64,000 nt of DNA. Source: Deltaproteobacteria bacterium. Lineage in GTDB: Bacteria; CALINM01. Within the stretch, counting starts at the first letter, position 1. Every line of letters begins with the position of its first letter. The translations under genes and the position numbers were made by a program. The DNA lies in assembly GCA_037442505.1 (NCBI GenBank), contig JBBIPZ010000009.1:8618-72617 (forward strand), written 5' to 3'. Shown one piece after another: positions 42,828 to 50,838 of the stretch. A model generated the notes under the pieces. The model was not told where the DNA came from and ran no database searches. It was given only the letters and a program-made list of their open reading frames with translations.

Positions 42828-43313
42828 ATGGCGTTTCCACAGCTTGTGATGTATGAAGAAGAGGCAAGATTAATAGGCAGTTTGCTTGATAAGTTAGTTA
42901 ATGAATCTAACGCAAAGGCGGTGTTTCTTGTTGATAAAGATGGACAATTAATCTCACAGGCTGGAGATACTCAAAATTTTGATAGCACTTCACTTGCTTC
43001 CCTTACTGCTGGTAATATCGCCGCTACAGGTGGACTAGCAAAGCTGATTGGAGAAAAAGAGTTTTCCATTATATTCCACGAAGGCGAAAGGGACAATATA
43101 CATATTTCTATTGTTGGGCAAAGGGTTATACTTGTAGTTATATTTGACAATAGGTCGTCCTTAGGTTTAGTAAGATTAAGAGTTAGAAAGGTTTCAGAAG
43201 AACTTGCAGCTGTCTTCGAAAAACTGAGAGAAAAGGCTGATAAGCTCGAAAGATCTGGCTCGCCTTTTGCCGAAATTACAGATGAGGATATTGATAAGCT
43301 CTTTAACATATAA
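42828..43313 (+). CDS. mglB: MglB roadblock/LC7 GTPase-activating protein
   Basis: [65 protein letters not shown]. Confidence 0.96.
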
Positions 43314-43342
43314 AACGTTCTTTCGGGAGTTGGCTAAAACAG

Positions 43343-43933
43343 ATGTCATTTATTAATTATTCTGCACGTGAGATTAACTGTAAGATAGTTTACTATGGAT
43401 GTGGGTTATGTGGTAAGACTACAAATCTACAGTTCATATATGAAAAAACAAGTACTGAGTCAAAGGGCAAGATGATATCTCTTGCTACAGAGACTGAAAG
43501 AACGTTGTTTTTTGATTTTTTGCCACTTTCGCTGGGAGAAATTAAAGGTTTTAAGACAAGATTTCATTTATACACTGTACCGGGTCAGATATTTTATGAT
43601 GCTAGCAGAAAGCTTATTTTAAAAGGTGTTGATGGTATTGTGTTTGTCGGAGATTCACAGGCTGAAAGAATGGATGCCAACATAGAAAGCTTCGAAAACA
43701 TGAAAGAAAACCTACAAGAACATGGCTATGATATAGATAACATTCCTTATGTAGTTCAGTATAACAAAAGAGATTTACCCTCTGCTGTTCCAGTAGAAGA
43801 GCTTAGAAAGGTGTTAAATCCTTCAAATGTCCCTGACTTCGAAGCAGTCGCCACTAAGGGGATAGGAGTTTTTGAGACACTTAAGGCTGTTATAAAGCTT
43901 GTTTTGATTGAGCTTAAAAAAGGTGCCCGCTAA
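43343..43933 (+). CDS. mglA: MglA small Ras-like GTPase
   Basis: [41 protein letters not shown]. Confidence 0.97.
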
Positions 43934-43989
43934 TCTCCAAAAAGTGAGTTTTTTTAAATATTCTCTTCTATAAAACATTGTTTTCATTC

Positions 43990-44018
43990 TTGACCTTGCT
44001 TTTTTCTAATGGTAATCT
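43990..44018 (+). promoter_or_regulatory. Putative sigma-70 promoter of the three-gene exported module
   Basis: TTGACC-N17-TAATCT with an upstream TG. Confidence 0.5.
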
Positions 44019-44046
44019 TAATAAAAGAAAACTTGAGGAGGTTTGT

Positions 44047-46074
44047 GTGAAAAAGGTCTATTTATCATTGCTATCATTTTTAATACTTACTATTATTTTT
44101 TCTTGTGCTCCTGATCCTTACAAGCAGAGTTTTGAGAGGGCTAAGTTGCTAATGGCTCAAAACAATGTACAGGATGCCTATAATATTTCAAAAGAGTTAT
44201 GCAATAAGATGCCAGCGGAGAAGGAGTATTGTGACCTTTATAACGATACGCGAAAAACATTATACAATATTGAAGTTAAACAAATTGGTGCCAGAATAGC
44301 GTCTCTCAAGGCAGAAAAGCCCCTTATTCCAATACAGACGATTAGCGAATTATACAAAGATTTAAAACGTATTGAAGAATACGCTCTTAAAACTCAAGAG
44401 CTTGATAATATAAATAGACAGATAGAAAATGAAAAAATACTAACTGAAACAAAAAAAAGAGAGACATTGGAGAAAGCAAAATCACTTTTCAACAATCAGG
44501 AGTATGTTGAAGCGATAGATACCCTGAATGGTATTTTGTATCTTGATGAAGCAAATATATCGGAAGTTATAAATGACTACAAAGATAAGGCATTATCAAT
44601 ACTATATCCAAAGATAAACGAAAGCATTGCTAAAGACGATTGGGCAACCGCACACAGCTTGTTAAAGGTTGCAAACGATGTAAATCCTGAGTACAAAAAT
44701 GTAAAAACTCTTTTAAAAGATGCTCAGGAGAGAGATAGCGGAGAATATAATTTGAAAAAAGGTGATGAGGCGAGAAAGACTAGAAAGTATGAGACCGCTC
44801 TCAATTTTTACAAAAAGGCAATTAACTATCCTGATACGAAGGATAGAGCAGAACAGCTTTATTACAATACCAAAATAGAACTTTGTGATTTTTACTTTTT
44901 GACAGCCATTGAGTTAATGGAGCAAGACCTTAACAAACAAGCGTTTGATAACTTTAAGAAGGCGTTTGATGTTATAGAAACGCTACCGTTAGAAAAGAAA
45001 AGAATAGTGAGAATTCCTAGAAAAGAGTTACAGAAGTTTTATGATACATTATATCTTAAGGCTAAAAAGGCAGAAGATGGTGATAATTTAGGCTTAGCTT
45101 ATCAGTTTTATAAGTTGATTTCACTTTTAGCGCCTTCTTATCCCGACATTAAAGAAAATTTAAGAAAGACTGAAGAAAAGATAGTGAACAGGGCATTAAA
45201 AAGTATGGCTGTTATTCCCTTTAAAAGTCCAAAATCAGCACCTGAGGCTGGGAATATGTTTACATCTGCAATAATGTTGACACTTTATAATGAGTTGAAA
45301 CAGGATATGAAAATAATAGAAAGAGAGTCGATGGACGTGTTGTTGAGAGAATATGAATTAACGATGGCCGGCAAGTCTGCTGATAAACCAAAAGATAGCT
45401 CTTCTTTTCAGATAAGTAGTGCAGACTATTTACTATTAGGTGATGTTCTTGACTATCGTGTTGATTCATCAGTGCAGGAAGGAAACAAAGTTGTTAGGAT
45501 AAAGACGCGAGTGGAATTTATTCCCAATCCAGATTACGAAGAATGGGTTAAAAATGCAAAAAAACTGCAGGAATCAGGACAGATTATACCACCATCACCA
45601 CCAAAACTGATTGAAAAACCTTTTTACGAAGATATCAAATACAAAGTAACGTTTTATAAAAAGGTAGGTATAATTAGTATTAGCTATAGAATAGTTGATT
45701 CTGCAAGAGGGAAGATTATACATACTGGCATTGCAGATATTAAAAAGGATGCAAATGATGAGTCCAGTGAAGGGGTAGAGATAGGCGATTTTAAGATTCC
45801 TTTCAAAATGGCTCAGTTGCCTACAGATACAGAATTACTAAAAAAGGCTCAAGAAGAGGCTGTAGCAAAGATCGCTGATGATGTAAAAAAGCTGTTCAAA
45901 GATCCGGAAGATAAGTATTTGAAGCAAGGAGAACAGTTAGAAAAAGATGGCAACATAAAGGAAGCGATCGAAAGATATACAGATGCGATGATTCTTTTGA
46001 GAAAGAAAAATAAAGATGTGTCTTCATTAGAACAGAAGATAAGTAAATATATTGACGCACTTTCAAACATTTAA
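44047..46074 (+). CDS. TPR lipoprotein with C-terminal CsgG/HfaB-like domain
   Basis: SD GAGGAGG and GTG 44047; lipobox IFSC; TPR-like helices; MAVIPF...IIERESMDVLLREYEL...ADYLLLGDV...ISYRIVDSARGKII. Confidence 0.75.
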   Translation: MKKVYLSLLSFLILTIIFSCAPDPYKQSFERAKLLMAQNNVQDAYNISKELCNKMPAEKEYCDLYNDTRKTLYNIEVKQIGARIASLKAEKPLIPIQTISELYKDLKRIEEYALKTQELDNINRQIENEKILTETKKRETLEKAKSLFNNQEYVEAIDTLNGILYLDEANISEVINDYKDKALSILYPKINESIAKDDWATAHSLLKVANDVNPEYKNVKTLLKDAQERDSGEYNLKKGDEARKTRKYETALNFYKKAINYPDTKDRAEQLYYNTKIELCDFYFLTAIELMEQDLNKQAFDNFKKAFDVIETLPLEKKRIVRIPRKELQKFYDTLYLKAKKAEDGDNLGLAYQFYKLISLLAPSYPDIKENLRKTEEKIVNRALKSMAVIPFKSPKSAPEAGNMFTSAIMLTLYNELKQDMKIIERESMDVLLREYELTMAGKSADKPKDSSSFQISSADYLLLGDVLDYRVDSSVQEGNKVVRIKTRVEFIPNPDYEEWVKNAKKLQESGQIIPPSPPKLIEKPFYEDIKYKVTFYKKVGIISISYRIVDSARGKIIHTGIADIKKDANDESSEGVEIGDFKIPFKMAQLPTDTELLKKAQEEAVAKIADDVKKLFKDPEDKYLKQGEQLEKDGNIKEAIERYTDAMILLRKKNKDVSSLEQKISKYIDALSNI

Positions 46075-46094
46075 TGTTTTTTAGGAGTTGAACT

Positions 46095-49000
46095 GTGGGT
46101 AGAAAAGCAGTATTAGTTTTATTATTGGTATTTCTTTGTTTAATGCTTTTTTTACCACCATTTGCAACTGCATTAGATCCATTAGAAACATTAAAAAACA
46201 TCAAAGATTCAGCAGTTGAGTTAGGCGAGGCTCTTCTGCTTAAGGGAAAAAAACTGCCTAAAACTATTGCTGTTTTACCTGCTACCGGAGAGGGCGAAGA
46301 GCAAGACAAAGTCGAAATCAGAACGAGTTTTTCTAATCACATTTCGTATAAAAATTACGATCAGCTAAAAATCACTGATATTGACAACAAAATACATCTT
46401 GCAAAAAAACAGTTTGGCAAAGATTGGGACAAGTTTACTCCACAGGAGTTGGGTAAGATTTTGAATGTTGACGGTCTAATTTACGTTCAAATAGTTGGTA
46501 TTGAAAAGGTATATGCTGCTTTATATGGTAGTTTAACGCTAAAATTAAAGGTAAAGCTTGTAAATACAGAAAATGGCGAAGTTATATGGGAAAAAGAGGA
46601 TTCTGTTACAGAAAGGTCTGGCGGTTTGCCAACGTCACCGTGGGGTGCTATATCCACAGCGGTATCTTCTGCACTTGTTTTGAGAGAAAGTGTTAAGGTA
46701 GCGCTGACTGATAAATTATGCAGGAGTCTGGCAAAAGAAATGCCAGAACCGAAAACAGCAAAAGCAAAAAGACCTCCAGCTATTTACTCTGTTTTAACAA
46801 ATGCCCTTGACGGTCCTTTTAAAGCCCAAGATGAAATACTCGTATCGTTGCAGGGTGAAGAAGGACAAACGGCTTATTTTGATATAGGGGATGTTAAAAA
46901 GGCGATTCCACTAAGCGAGATAAAACCGGGCGAATATATGGGGAAGTATGTCGTAAGGGATGGAGACGCTTGGGATAATCAGACAATAACTGCTTATTTG
47001 TACAATCCCAAGGACAGGTTAGAAGCTCGATATACTGTTTCAAATACTGTAACTGTTGATACTGTTCCGCCGCTTCAAGTCTTCGATGTGAAAACTTTTA
47101 TGAAGAAGGACTGTATCCATCTGACCTGGAGTACTAATCCCGATGACGATGTTAAAGATTATGTTATCGCACGTGCTACTGTTGAAAATCCGAGCTTTGT
47201 TGAAATAGGTATTGTTTCCGTGCCTGAATATATTGATAGCGACATAACCTTTGGCAAAAAATATTACTACAGGATTTTTGCACGGGATAAGGCAAAAAAT
47301 TTAAGTAAATTTGTAGAAATTTCGAGTGTAGCTGTTAAAACCGGCCCCACAATTGTAAAGGGAGATATAAAAGAAAATACTACCTTTTATGCAGCTGGTA
47401 GCCCATATATCATTGAAGGAAATGTTGAAGTATTAAAAGGTTCAACTCTTATACTGGATGAAGGTGTCGTTGTAGAATTTAAAAAAAATTCAAAATTAAT
47501 TGTTTCTGGACAGGTAATTGTAAAAGGGAAAAAGGACGCTATCGTAACCTTTAAAGGTGTTGATTATGATATTATTCTTAAAGACACTTCAAAAGATGCG
47601 TTTATAGCAAATTGCGCCTATTTTTTGGGTGGAAGAAGGTTTGTGATAACAAATGCATTTTCCAATTTTAGTAGCACTACCTTTGAAGATTTTAGCCTGG
47701 CGCTTGTTATAGAAAGAAACTCAGAAGTTAATATTACTGATTCTCATTTTAGAAAAAACAAAACGACGATCAAAATAACAGACAGCAAAATATCGCTTAA
47801 AAATGTAGAAATTACAACTTCTCAAAGTGCTCTCGAGATAGCTGGAAATGCTACATTAAATTCACAAGAATTAAAGCTAAAAAATAATGAAATACATTTG
47901 ACTTCAGAAGCTACAGCAGAAATAAACGATTTAGAAGTTTCTGAAAGTCAGGAGATTGACGTAATAAGAAAAATAAGGGGAGACGTAGAGATAAAAAAAC
48001 TAAAACCTTTTGGAAAGACGTTTAAAACGCTAAAAAAAGAGTTTATAGAAGATGTAAAAAAAGATTTATCTATTGCACTTGTTAAAGATAACCATGCAGA
48101 GGCAAGAAAAAAACTTGACCTGTTAAGAGAACTGTCGGAAAAAGATTTTTATGACTTGAGCGACATTGCAGTATATTTGTTATATAAAGATGGTGAAGAA
48201 CAGTCAGCCAGAGATATACTTGCCAGAGGTTTTGTCAAAGCTGGCAAAGAGTTAGAAAAAATATTATCAAATGGTGAGAAGTCAGATATTATAGTGAAAT
48301 TTACCGATGTAAAGGTTGCGTTAGGTTCATCCTTAGATGGTGTAGATAGGGCAGGTATAACAAAAGCTAAATGGAGGGCTGTAAAGAATTTTGCTGAGGA
48401 AAAGATTGAAAATTTAGATAGAGAAAGGCTTTCTGTGCTCAATGATAAGATTATCCCAAAATCATCGGATTATACCATTAACGTGCTTCCCATTATCACA
48501 ATGACAACAGATGTTTGTTATGATGGTTACTATATGATTTTTCTCGATGTCAGGAAGATTATGAGCGATTTAAAAGAGTTTAGATTATTAAGTGATGTGA
48601 AAATGGAAACCAGGTTTGGTATAGTTGATTGTTCAGGCATTGGGATAACGAAAGGCTTGTTACTAAGAACACTTAATAAGCTAAAATTTAGTTTTTCAGA
48701 ATATGGTACTGGTAGCTGTGAGCCTTCAAATTACTATGAAAAGGCAAAAAACAGCGATACAGATGTAATTATACTGGCGAATGAATCTGCAAAAGTTAAT
48801 CCAAGCCTTCTTGGAGGGAATTTAAAAAATATCAGTGCAACTATCGAAATTAAAGCATTTGACGCGTTTCTTTCCAAACCATTATTTAATCTTACCAAAG
48901 GTATAAACATTTATCACATGAATGAAGATTTAGGCAAAGAAGTTGCGTTAAAAAATGCTTATGAGGTATTAATAGAGCGTTTTGAACGTGAGCTCTTAAG

Positions 49001-50462
49001 TATAGAAAAGTCGTTCATTTCCGACGAAAGCAGAAAAAAGATTAAGAAGGCTTTTTATTCAGAAAAGTATCTTCCACCAATAGAAATTAAAGTAAACAAG
49101 ATTGAACCAATTTTTGCGAATAACTACAAGGTTTATTCTGAAAAACCTTTTGCAGAATTAATGATTACAAACAATACAGCGAGTAACTTGGATTCGCTTA
49201 AGATTGCGATAATGATAAAAGATTATATGGATTTTCCTACAGAACAAACAATAGATCGTCTGGAAGCACTTGGAACCAAAGGTATAAAACTTACTGGTGT
49301 TTTTAATAATAAGCTGCTCGAACTAACAGAAAACACCATGCTTCAATCTGATATTTCAGTTAAATTTATAAAAGATGGTAGAGAAAAGGTTATTAATATA
49401 ACACAGCCCGTTCAGGTTTATGAAAAACATGCACTTTTCTGGGACGATAGAAATAAGATAGCTATATATATAACTCCAAAAGACCCTGCTATAGTTGATT
49501 TTTCAAGGGAGATAACACGTTCGGTTAAAAATAAAGTTTTTTCAACAAATTTCAGTTTAGGAATGGGTGTTTTTGAGGCGATGCGTTCTATAGGCATTAT
49601 TTATCAACAAGATCCAAATAATCCTTATCAGGTGGTTTCTGAAAAGGTTGGCACTGTTGATTATGTGCAGTATCCAAGAGAAACCTTAAAAAGAAGGGCT
49701 GGTGACTGTGATGATCTTGTAAGCCTTTTTATCTCATTGATAGAGAGTCTTGGTATAGATGCTGTTGCTATAGATTATCCTGGTCATATACTTGCAATGT
49801 TCGATTCGGGTGTTGCAAGGGAAGATATAGAAAAAGCAGGACTAAGCAGAGATATGGTAGTTATATATGAAGATAAAGTTTACATACCTGTAGAACTTAC
49901 ATTATTGGGAGAAAACTTTTATAATTCGTGGAAGAAAGGAGCATCTAATTACAATGAAAATTTAGGAAAAGGACTAAAATTTGTTAATATCGAGAAGGCA
50001 TGGCAACAATATAAACCAGCAACACTCCCACCAGAAACTCATACTGTCGTGTTGCCAGCAAATTTTGGAAACTTTTATAAAACCGCATACGATAATGTGA
50101 TTAATGAAAGAAACGAAATGGTTTTTAAAAATGTCAACGGTAATAGCATAAAACCTGAGCAGAGTTTATACATTCTAAAAACGAATAATTTAGCTGAAGA
50201 TGCGATTTTGCTTGGAGAATTTCTTCTAAAAAAAGGGATTGATAATGTTGCATTTTTAAATGATCTTGGTAATATAGCATATCTGGACAAAAACTTTGAA
50301 AATGCGGCTGTATATTATAAAAAGGCTTTGGAGAAAGAACCAGAAAATCCATATATAATGAGCAACCTCTTGTACGCTTTAAAGAAAATGGGCAGAAAAA
50401 ATGAAGTAAAAATTTACAAAGAAAAGTTGAAAAAATTAGCTCATTTTTTAGTGGAGGAGTAA
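46095..50462 (+). CDS. Large exported multidomain protein: GNA1162/DUF799-like, FN3, beta-helix, transglutaminase-like core, TPR
   Basis: Signal peptide; TIAVLP...PQELGKILNVDGLIY...LVNTENGEVIW; FN3 DTVPP...YYYRIFARDKAKN; SPYIIEGNVEV...TLILDEGVVVEF; DYVQYPRETLKRRAGDCDD...PGHI...PVELT; final TPR. Confidence 0.8.
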   Translation: MGRKAVLVLLLVFLCLMLFLPPFATALDPLETLKNIKDSAVELGEALLLKGKKLPKTIAVLPATGEGEEQDKVEIRTSFSNHISYKNYDQLKITDIDNKIHLAKKQFGKDWDKFTPQELGKILNVDGLIYVQIVGIEKVYAALYGSLTLKLKVKLVNTENGEVIWEKEDSVTERSGGLPTSPWGAISTAVSSALVLRESVKVALTDKLCRSLAKEMPEPKTAKAKRPPAIYSVLTNALDGPFKAQDEILVSLQGEEGQTAYFDIGDVKKAIPLSEIKPGEYMGKYVVRDGDAWDNQTITAYLYNPKDRLEARYTVSNTVTVDTVPPLQVFDVKTFMKKDCIHLTWSTNPDDDVKDYVIARATVENPSFVEIGIVSVPEYIDSDITFGKKYYYRIFARDKAKNLSKFVEISSVAVKTGPTIVKGDIKENTTFYAAGSPYIIEGNVEVLKGSTLILDEGVVVEFKKNSKLIVSGQVIVKGKKDAIVTFKGVDYDIILKDTSKDAFIANCAYFLGGRRFVITNAFSNFSSTTFEDFSLALVIERNSEVNITDSHFRKNKTTIKITDSKISLKNVEITTSQSALEIAGNATLNSQELKLKNNEIHLTSEATAEINDLEVSESQEIDVIRKIRGDVEIKKLKPFGKTFKTLKKEFIEDVKKDLSIALVKDNHAEARKKLDLLRELSEKDFYDLSDIAVYLLYKDGEEQSARDILARGFVKAGKELEKILSNGEKSDIIVKFTDVKVALGSSLDGVDRAGITKAKWRAVKNFAEEKIENLDRERLSVLNDKIIPKSSDYTINVLPIITMTTDVCYDGYYMIFLDVRKIMSDLKEFRLLSDVKMETRFGIVDCSGIGITKGLLLRTLNKLKFSFSEYGTGSCEPSNYYEKAKNSDTDVIILANESAKVNPSLLGGNLKNISATIEIKAFDAFLSKPLFNLTKGINIYHMNEDLGKEVALKNAYEVLIERFERELLSIEKSFISDESRKKIKKAFYSEKYLPPIEIKVNKIEPIFANNYKVYSEKPFAELMITNNTASNLDSLKIAIMIKDYMDFPTEQTIDRLEALGTKGIKLTGVFNNKLLELTENTMLQSDISVKFIKDGREKVINITQPVQVYEKHALFWDDRNKIAIYITPKDPAIVDFSREITRSVKNKVFSTNFSLGMGVFEAMRSIGIIYQQDPNNPYQVVSEKVGTVDYVQYPRETLKRRAGDCDDLVSLFISLIESLGIDAVAIDYPGHILAMFDSGVAREDIEKAGLSRDMVVIYEDKVYIPVELTLLGENFYNSWKKGASNYNENLGKGLKFVNIEKAWQQYKPATLPPETHTVVLPANFGNFYKTAYDNVINERNEMVFKNVNGNSIKPEQSLYILKTNNLAEDAILLGEFLLKKGIDNVAFLNDLGNIAYLDKNFENAAVYYKKALEKEPENPYIMSNLLYALKKMGRKNEVKIYKEKLKKLAHFLVEE

Positions 50463-50463
50463 G

Positions 50464-50838
50464 ATGAAGCTAAAAAAACTTTTTATAACTGTTTTCATCT
50501 TATTGTTTACAACAACATTTGTCTTTTCCCAACAGTCAACTGTAATAGAAAAAGTTAAGAAAAAAATAAAAGGGATTAGAGTTACTAACAGTGTCAATAA
50601 AACCACAGCGATTGCCGGAGTTAGGGGAGCAGAAGAAAAGGAAGATGCGACGCTTTTCTGGTATGGAAAAGACTCAATTGCAAAAGAGGAACTTGATTTA
50701 TTTCAATCAGGGCTTGATAAATTAGAAAAAGGTGATGCTTCATCAGCACGTTCAATATTTGAAATGTTTTTGAATAAATATCCAAAATCAGTTTTGTCAC
50801 CTGATGCGTATGAAGTTATAAAAACATTAAAAAATTAG
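50464..50838 (+). CDS. Small exported protein with TTAIAGVRG motif and C-terminal TPR-like hairpin
   Basis: Signal peptide; FEMFLNKYPKS resembles CpoB/BamD-type TPR; starts 1 nt after the upstream stop. Confidence 0.75.
   Translation: MKLKKLFITVFILLFTTTFVFSQQSTVIEKVKKKIKGIRVTNSVNKTTAIAGVRGAEEKEDATLFWYGKDSIAKEELDLFQSGLDKLEKGDASSARSIFEMFLNKYPKSVLSPDAYEVIKTLKN

Follow-up and report, generated by a model that had tools for sequence, protein, structure and literature searches.

What do three tightly spaced genes, encoding a lipoprotein, a giant multidomain protein and a small secreted protein, accomplish together in a bacterial envelope? The genes in question, here called g1, g2 and g3, lie between mglA and aroF in the 64,000-nt stretch of the Deltaproteobacteria bacterium contig JBBIPZ010000009.1 that was analysed (the window). 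Lipoprotein clusters with CsgG, GNA1162 and FlgT folds occur commonly among diderm bacteria and have no known function. We regard it as about an even bet that the three proteins build a periplasmic scaffold, tethered to the outer membrane, which carries a thiol enzyme and has g3 as its dedicated substrate or regulator. This reading is carried by the residues conserved in the C-terminal half of g2, by the predicted docking of g3 on the repeats that follow them, and by the fusions and splits around g1 in other genomes, which amount to a map of the parts that belong together. That map ties a conserved putative thiol enzyme and its small partner to scaffolds of the CsgG, GNA1162 and FlgT kinds.

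Organization of the three genes

An earlier description made from the letters of this DNA (the sequence-only reading) had placed three genes here with gaps of 20 and 1 nt and had assigned export signals to all three products. The open reading frames (ORFs), co-directional on the + strand, were found at the predicted places and with that spacing (20 nt between g1 and g2, 1 nt between g2 and g3). The start codon of g1 is a GTG preceded by a GAGGAGG ribosome-binding site, and its product begins with a hydrophobic stretch and a lipobox at Cys20; the N-terminus of g2 is hydrophobic and ends in ..FATA before LDP, and that of g3, a protein devoid of Cys, is signal-like. The export signals, read by eye from the translations and not taken from predictor output, agree with the earlier description. 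The features discussed below are the following (positions in the window; basis in brackets).

44047..46074, + strand: g1, 675-aa lipoprotein with lipobox Cys20 (ORF and start codon)
44116..45195, + strand: g1 residues 24–383, helical solenoid resembling tetratricopeptide repeats (TPR) (all-helical model, Foldseek)
45196..45906, + strand: g1 residues 384–620, domain of the PelC/CsgG/FlgT fold (VIA, Pfam CsgG)
46095..50462, + strand: g2, 1455-aa exported multidomain protein (ORF, full-length relatives)
46257..46664, + strand: g2 residues 55–190, GNA1162-like domain of the TolB-N/LpoB fold clan (Pfam PF05643, family profile)
46785..47339, + strand: g2 residues 231–415, Ig-like domain plus FN3 (titin FN3 matches)
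47340..47954, + strand: g2 residues 416–620, probable right-handed beta-helix (homologues only)
47955..48281, + strand: g2 residues 621–729, helical linker region (AlphaFold2, AF2, model)
48288..49076, + strand: g2 residues 732–994, FlgT/HpaA/CsgG-like alpha/beta domains plus long helices (Foldseek, VIA)
49080..49439, + strand: g2 residues 996–1115, beta-sandwich before the putative catalytic core (model; conserved with the core family-wide)
49440..50021, + strand: g2 residues 1116–1309, transglutaminase-fold core with Cys1205, His1231 and Glu1267 (conservation, Foldseek)
50064..50459, + strand: g2 residues 1324–1455, C-terminal TPR, predicted docking site of g3 (Pfam TPR_1, complex model)
50464..50838, + strand: g3, 124-aa secreted protein (ORF, homologues)
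50614..50628, + strand: g3 residues 51–55, AGVRG motif (conservation)
50653..50673, + strand: g3 residues 64–70, LFWYGKD segment (conservation, complex model)
50689..50811, + strand: g3 residues 76–116, YbgF/BamD-like helical hairpin (TIGR02795, Pfam YfiO, TPR_6)

The putative enzyme module of g2

The best reading of the C-terminal half of g2, judged from conservation and structural models, is a thiol enzyme of the transglutaminase fold with a Cys-His-Glu set, the catalysis of which we infer. The sequence-only reading had pointed to an intact-looking set of Cys1205 (GDCDD), His1231 (PGHI) and Glu1267 (PVELT); the three residues do stand at these positions, and each of them is kept in 98% of 150 family representatives, while Trp1116, Asp1189, Gly1203 and Thr1269 are kept in 150 of 150. 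The assignment of a transglutaminase-like domain is likewise borne out by the fold match to animal transglutaminases, since the core of the g2 model aligned with TG3 (1l9n) over 301 columns with a Foldseek E-value of 8.5e-4, and TG2 and protein 4.2 were matched as well. The transglutaminase matches came from Foldseek only; in VIA, TPR proteins filled the matches listed for the g2 model. As in the transglutaminase-like superfamily (PF01841; TG2, TG3), a beta-sandwich is followed by a Cys, a His and an acidic residue in the same order. Unlike in canonical members, the third residue is Glu instead of Asp, and the domain has TPR after it and a gene for a small partner.

In the scans made, members of the family gave weak or borderline Pfam matches and sub-threshold NCBIfam matches for the domain. 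One member (P0174) scored 24.2 bits against Transglut_core, over the cut-off of 23, and another (P0066) 21.4 bits against DUF553, over the cut-off of 20.5. With hhalign, a canonical Transglut_core protein aligned with its GNC opposite the GDC of g2, over 31 columns only and with a probability of 17.9%. The ESM Atlas yielded leads only, one of them a cluster in which 58% of the members carry Transglut_core.

The family itself is large: among 1.84 billion representatives searched with HMMER, 2312 members were collected at E≤1e-3, of which 1111 reached E≤1e-30, the members being representatives at 50% identity. Its shared part corresponds to g2 residues ~992–1320; NHL propellers plus FN3 or long TPR arrays precede this part in some members, in others it stands almost by itself, and TPR usually comes next. 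In g2 these C-terminal repeats match Pfam TPR_1 (E 1.3e-5) and CTPR proteins (VIA Z 13.7).

Predicted binding of g3 to g2

The g3 family comprises 38 matches and extends to a named species, Calditerrivibrio nitroreducens, which is represented by a contig of 2.16 Mb, while g1 homologues are known from Calditerrivibrio metagenome-assembled genomes (MAGs). Family members keep an [AV]-[AG]-G/A-[VI]-[RK]-G segment, an LYWxGK segment and a YbgF/BamD-like hairpin, the last matching TIGR02795 (E 2.2e-5), Pfam YfiO (E 0.0012) and TPR_6 (E 0.0014) at residues 76–116 of g3. Among 34 sequences Trp66 is invariant and Leu64 nearly so. The AGVRG motif from which the sequence-only reading had named the protein is thus a conserved one, in the form A/V-G/A-V/I-R/K-G at residues 51–55, and both it and LYWxGK are retained in distant copies from metagenomes.

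The earlier suggestion that g3 is a partner of the giant protein gained support from a model of g2 residues 991–1455 with mature g3, which gave ipSAE values of 0.78, 0.77 and 0.78, the best control giving 0.00. Of 80 solved complexes 58 attain the mark applied to this score, and of 110 mismatched pairs 2 do so, a rough calibration only, own alignments having been used here. Between runs at least 95% of the contacts agreed, and the pLDDT of the partner was at least 77. The confident predicted interface joins residues 60–70 and 103–116 of g3 to residues 1353–1452 of g2, that is, to the C-terminal TPR, with the LFWYGKD segment at its centre. The sequence-only reading had asked whether the AGVRG strand docks on the catalytic or the CsgG-like domain; in the model AGVRG lies outside the confident interface, and LFWYGKD sits in the TPR instead. 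Binding of g3 to these repeats is accordingly a prediction supported by the model, and one that offers a direct and cheap route to experiment.

What g3 might do once bound may be considered from its motif. The basic residue of AGV[RK]G is either Arg or Lys, so that g3 is unlikely to act there as a lysine amine donor. Cleavage, or binding as a pseudo-substrate, would fit better.

The lipoprotein g1

We read g1 as an anchored platform rather than as a pore. The AF2 model, built from 22 of its homologues (pLDDT 87.4), comprises a solenoid (24–383), an alpha/beta domain (384–620) and terminal helices. By sequence, g1 had no match in the Protein Data Bank (PDB) at E≤1, and its solenoid was matched by Foldseek to the TPR proteins P58IPK, SPY and OGT (E 3e-6 to 3e-5). 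Homologues number 28 and come mostly from Deferribacterales and Calditerrivibrio MAGs.

The alpha/beta domain was best matched by PelC, of the Pel export complex (PDB 5t11, 5t10, 9h80), with a VIA Z of 14.9 over 117 aligned residues and a root-mean-square deviation (rmsd) of 1.9 (Z 12.8 for PelBC, 9h80). PelC is itself a lipoprotein whose fold assembles into a ring beneath the outer membrane. Similar values were obtained with XCC0632 (Z 14.9), FlgT (Z 13.6) and CsgG (4q79; Z 13.0, 164 aligned, rmsd 4.9, a shared core fold), and LptE, TolB-N and GNA1162 (Z 9.2) were matched too. The Pfam CsgG profile (PF03783) scored 31 bits, over its cut-off of 20.8, through residues 416–475, which correspond to profile positions 47–106; a match to the full-length profile was not obtained, only 60 of its 210 positions being covered. 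The fold match being about equal for PelC, FlgT and CsgG, the models do not support g1 as specifically a CsgG pore. Of the earlier label, a CsgG-like TPR lipoprotein, the lipobox, the TPR-like arm and the shared core fold stand, whereas the Pfam match is partial and PelC and FlgT are equally close.

A CsgG-type pore would be expected to show two amphipathic transmembrane beta-hairpins in each protomer, and no sign of these was seen. The long strands 461–493, 521–551 and 556–574 contain 10/33, 10/31 and 7/19 charged residues and no hydrophobic face, according to a simple hydropathy count, which is not a membrane predictor. The proposal that the lipoprotein anchors or exports its partner is therefore only half upheld: with charged strands and a fold not specific to CsgG, export is unsupported, while anchoring stays plausible. 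From PelC, g1 further differs in its long charged beta-hairpins and TPR extensions, and in that no PelB-like porin or Pel synthesis genes lie nearby.

The N-terminal half and middle of g2

The remainder of g2 resembles scaffold proteins, largely as the sequence-only reading had proposed. Its GNA1162/DUF799-like N-terminus was recovered by Pfam PF05643 at residues 55–177 (23.1 bits, E 6.2e-5, under the cut-off of 25.9) and, in a six-frame search, with 27.4 bits, over that cut-off; the profile of a 12-sequence family of N-half homologues matched PDB 4hrv (E 6.2e-6), and the domain was seen in 8 of the 12. For the FN3 part, the family profile matched titin with an E-value of 1.8e-18. The beta-helix, the third element proposed, was seen through homologues only: NosD was found in 5/12 of them and Beta_helix in 1/12 (E 2e-9), and the window copy had no beta-helix match at E≤0.01.

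The AF2 model of residues 620–1455, made from 36 sequences (pLDDT 92.9), shows in order helices, alpha/beta domains, long helices, the beta-sandwich, the transglutaminase-like core and TPR. Within it, residues ~732–994 had their best Foldseek match in FlgT of the Vibrio H-ring (3w1e; E 2.5e-8), followed by the LPHT ring (8z5n; E 7.6e-8). HpaA matched residues 217–375 of the g2 model (VIA Z 12.2), and CsgG also matched the alpha/beta domains. Separate FlgT_N/CsgG-like proteins of other phyla match the 732–994 region.

Distribution, fusions and splits

In the GTDB phylum of the window all three genes are present in 3/6 genomes (G000, G003 and G005), and they occur together also in Deferribacterales and Calditerrivibrio MAGs. 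Full-length relatives of g2 were found in G005 (51% identity), in G003 (49%) and in four metagenome loci (L050–L053). A scan of genome contigs with the single g2 protein found no relative, whereas the genome search and alignment profiles did. G002 and G004 lack g1 and carry a protein of 770–796 aa of the N-half type (GNA1162-FN3-beta-helix-TPR), whose gene is flanked by those of a CHASE2 adenylate/guanylate cyclase and of a Crp-type cNMP-binding regulator (L016 6171–11299; L017 322–5464). In G002, devoid of the module, mglA and the aroF homologue are direct neighbours in convergent orientation, which identifies the module as an indel between them.

When 185,579 species genomes were scanned with the g1 profile, 23 loci were obtained, two of which are the contigs of G003 and G005 again. 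A g2-type module follows the g1 homologue in 10 of the 23: in 6 with the full g2 architecture (three split by stops), in 2 with a contig end inside a g2-like gene, and in 2 as an 827–846-aa protein made of FlgT-like and transglutaminase parts only, then g3. In another 8/23 the downstream gene encodes an FN3-repeat protein, 3 of the 8 having a separate GNA1162-FN3-beta-helix-TPR protein two genes on, and 5/23 have none of these parts. Among the genome loci, 5 of 8 with a transglutaminase module have g3, as against 0 of 13 without such a module. When metagenomes were scanned with the enzyme module, 79 loci emerged, and the 63 with a strong match fell into 53 clusters at 90% identity. Of 46 assessable clusters, 26 have a g3-like ORF immediately after the transglutaminase-TPR gene, 16 of these at E<1e-10. 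The co-occurrence of homologues on which the idea of a common complex depended is thus found, both for g2-type genes after g1 (10/23 loci, plus the 3 with a GNA1162-FN3-beta-helix protein two genes on) and for g3 (26/46), and it supports a functional link between the genes.

The splits are as informative as the fusions. In a Nitrospirae locus (L037) the order is CsgG+FlgT_C, SLH, an unknown gene, CsgG-like+TPR, canonical Transglut_core, a small protein, FlgT_N/CsgG-like, the g1 homologue, an FN3 protein, a second small protein and a GNA1162-beta-helix protein. Since such parts surround g1 elsewhere as separate genes, the giant g2 is a fusion of at least three subunits. The module does not stand alone; it belongs to a wider modular family of envelope clusters, with related versions in several bacterial phyla.

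Some further observations concern these loci. In G005 the module comes after ileS, lspA (signal peptidase II) and lgt (prolipoprotein diacylglyceryl transferase; L028 3795–7806), so that lipoprotein-maturation genes directly precede a lipoprotein gene. The g2 homologue of G003 (L014/L027 4181–8539) is interrupted by one in-frame TAG into pieces of 159 and 1243 aa, and two Denitrovibrio MAG copies are split (L032, L033) and a third intact (L034); these splits could be decay or assembly errors. In G000, the genome of the window, another CsgG-family ORF (401 aa, 36.3 bits) and another GNA1162-like ORF (207 aa) occur on other contigs (C4:86549–86968 and C3:20125–20361), not adjacent to each other. 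Nitrospirae and Geobacter-type clusters encode a further family of small exported proteins (98–115 aa), unrelated to g3, without a Pfam match and with an invariant GRYQLFQGTYT block (L037 12243–12551; L046 9187–9480; L044 12464–12757; L045 5783–6088; L048 7661–8005). The gene comes right after that of the FN3-repeat protein and, in L037 and L046, immediately precedes that of the GNA1162-beta-helix protein. At its N-terminus, the Nitrospirae g1 homologue (L037 7959–9965) matches NCBIfam NF040658, the Myxococcus outer-membrane-exchange lipoprotein TraC, at E 1.4e-13 over positions 13–121 of 602, far under the cut-off; the window g1 gives no such match. Syntrophus-type g1-like genes (L043 707–7519, 9660–13013; L040; L047) adjoin ORFs of 2100–2271 aa in a context unlike that of the enzyme module; the large ORF of L043 is of the PKD/SprB-repeat type, and an RHS-repeat protein comes after it.

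Relation to described systems

The nearest described thing is the cluster of three lipoproteins csgG/DUF4810/GNA1162 (DUF799), which a preprint reports from Acinetobacter, Neisseria and Vibrio, with an unknown role (bioRxiv 10.1101/2021.05.19.444899). As in that cluster, the gene of a CsgG-clan lipoprotein adjoins those of a GNA1162-like protein and of a small helical protein that is exported, g2 supplying the PF05643 domain next to the CsgG homologue, and the module is likewise all exported, widespread and uncharacterized. In the module, unlike in the cluster, g1 matches 60/210 CsgG positions and bears a TPR arm of 360 residues, the GNA1162-like part is confined to the first ~190 residues of a 1455-aa protein, and a transglutaminase-fold enzyme is added. 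The third component also differs: g3 has no Cys and no match to DUF4810 (PF16068) at E≤1, nor was that domain found in the whole genome.

The likeness to FlgT concerns the middle of g2 and extends to gene order, separate FlgT_N/CsgG-like proteins adjoining g1 homologues in Nitrospirae and Geobacter-type loci. The module differs in lying outside a flagellar locus and in having its FlgT-like domain fused into a giant protein together with an enzyme domain. It is thus related to the csgG/GNA1162 lipoprotein clusters and to ring proteins of the FlgT type, and is itself uncharacterized. In the literature covered, which subscription journals lay outside, we found no description of this architecture, of a transglutaminase-TPR protein paired with a small protein, or of ProA (see below); the earlier statement that no characterized pathway has this architecture holds for the literature searched.

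A proposed assembly

According to the reading that we give an even chance, the assembly would hang in the periplasm from the inner face of the outer membrane. The lipid-anchored g1 would offer its TPR arm and a domain of the PelC/CsgG/FlgT fold, of the kind that builds rings under the membrane. The giant g2 unites subunits for which other phyla have separate genes next to g1. The parts likeliest to join the g1 platform would be the GNA1162-like and FlgT-like domains of g2, and its FN3 and beta-helix parts would extend into the periplasm. Gene structure, folds, conservation, and the fusion and split patterns are seen directly, and it is with these in view that we infer ring formation by g1 and contact between g1 and g2. 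At the far end, the C-terminal half of g2 would act as a transglutaminase-fold Cys-His-Glu thiol enzyme. With LFWYGKD of g3 seated in the TPR after the catalytic core, AGV[RK]G, likewise conserved and some 10 residues before it, would be left free as a probable substrate or pseudo-substrate loop. The likely chemistry would be thiol-dependent cleavage or transfer at peptide or isopeptide bonds, the putative substrates being envelope proteins or wall peptides.

Several observations weigh against this assembly. Pfam Transglut_core scores the window copy of g2 at 16.3 bits, under the cut-off of 23, and the beta-helix of that copy is probable from its homologues, not from its own sequence. G001, which shares its genus with G003 and G005 and is 98% complete, has neither g1 nor g2, which makes the module dispensable. 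Loci of the Denitrovibrio type have g1 and a full g2, and no g3. Among the assessable metagenome clusters, g1 lies upstream of the transglutaminase-module gene in only 7/29, so that the enzyme–g3 pair often works without g1. Moreover, TPR-peptide complexes are common among solved structures, and the score of the g2–g3 complex may partly be a memory of them. By gene content, the conserved core is thus the enzyme–g3 pair, with g1 joining in a subset of loci.

Taken further, and with a correspondingly small chance of being right as a whole, the transglutaminase-TPR protein and its g3-type protein would constitute a widespread, unrecognized two-component system for periplasmic protein modification. 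In such a system the g3-type protein would dock by LYWxGK and be processed or covalently transferred at the AGV[RK]G loop, for instance onto the wall or onto further envelope proteins, and the pair would have been recruited in some lineages to an outer-membrane ring scaffold of CsgG/FlgT/GNA1162-fold subunits.

Alternative explanations

The strongest of the rivals, unlikely as we hold it to be, is a scaffold for exopolymer export as in the Pel, alginate, curli or holdfast systems. Here g1 would combine a PelC-like ring with an AlgK/PelB-like TPR, the beta-helix would modify or bind a polysaccharide, and the transglutaminase would process or anchor the product. The rank of PelC as top structural match of g1 (Z 14.9, and 12.8 for PelBC 9h80) speaks for it, as do the NosD-type or pectate-lyase-type beta-helices in homologues of the g2 N-half; matrix anchoring by a CsgG homologue and two lipoproteins has also been proposed, in the same preprint (bioRxiv 10.1101/2021.05.19.444899). 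Against this, no synthase, glycosyltransferase, porin or fibre-subunit gene stands beside the module in the window, where the neighbours are PFOR, mglBA, aroF and ffh, none was seen in the related loci scanned with Pfam, and the membrane-hairpin signature was not found in g1.

Alternatively, and still less probably, the transglutaminase-fold domain may be non-catalytic and the cluster purely structural, for example a tether between outer membrane and wall, with g3 as a simple adaptor. The wall-binding SLH protein encoded in related Nitrospirae clusters would suit such a role, and protein 4.2, among the fold matches, is a non-catalytic transglutaminase relative. What speaks against it is the conservation of Cys, His and Glu, each present in 98% of 150 distant representatives, and of Asp1189, Gly1203 and Thr1269 in all 150, for which it is hard to account unless the domain performs chemistry.

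An accessory ring of a flagellum or pilus, similar to the Vibrio H-ring (FlgT/FlgP/FlgO) and placed at the pole under MglA/MglB, seems to us decidedly improbable. It would account for the Foldseek matches of the g2 middle to FlgT (E 2.5e-8) and the LPHT ring (7.6e-8), for the FlgT_N and FlgT_C Pfam matches in neighbour genes of related clusters, and for the position of mglB and mglA immediately upstream; yet neither the window flanks nor the related loci scanned contain flagellar or pilus genes, the mglA neighbourhood is not kept (ileS-lspA-lgt lies upstream in G005), and G001 lacks the module.

Finally, an anti-phage module related to ProA can practically be dismissed: the beta-sandwich and transglutaminase part is indeed shared with the first ~320 positions of NCBIfam NF058533, 'anti-phage protein ProA' (g2, 24.7 bits, E 3.4e-6, positions 13–284; family members, E 1e-8 to 1e-13), but this is a model of 1903 positions, scores of 25–49 bits compare with an equivalog cut-off of 1500, far above that of g2, all three proteins carry export signals, g1, g2 and g3 have no PADLOC match, and the surroundings are housekeeping genes.

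Genomic surroundings

As the sequence-only reading had it, the module sits between mglA and aroF: upstream on the same strand lie four PFOR subunit genes, mglB and mglA, and downstream, also on the same strand, the DAHP synthase gene (aroF), ffh and rpsP. The candidate promoter that it had assigned to the three genes did not hold up. The gap between mglA and g1 (43934..44046, 113 nt) was read as sequence; the promoter scan, which found 34 sites against 32.2 ± 5.7 expected, had none in it, and the terminator scan was likewise empty there. Nor do the genes end as a separate unit, because aroF starts 10 nt after g3, its ribosome-binding site overlaps the g3 stop, and the scan found no terminator-like site between them. 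With no promoter site in the 5′ gap and aroF so close behind g3, the module as a transcription unit of its own is not supported.

Among sequencing runs, no RNA data set was listed as containing this stretch, and 7 DNA rows from 4 studies contained part of it, each with less than half of its words. The mglB (Roadblock/LC7) and mglA pair occupies 42828–43933, immediately 5′ of the module, and the relatives G001 and G004 have a second, longer MglA-like ORF elsewhere (340–346 aa, ~60% identity). Within the module (window 44000–50500) the GC content is ~0.32–0.38, against 0.36–0.40 in the flanks, and the AT skew is higher than in the flanks.

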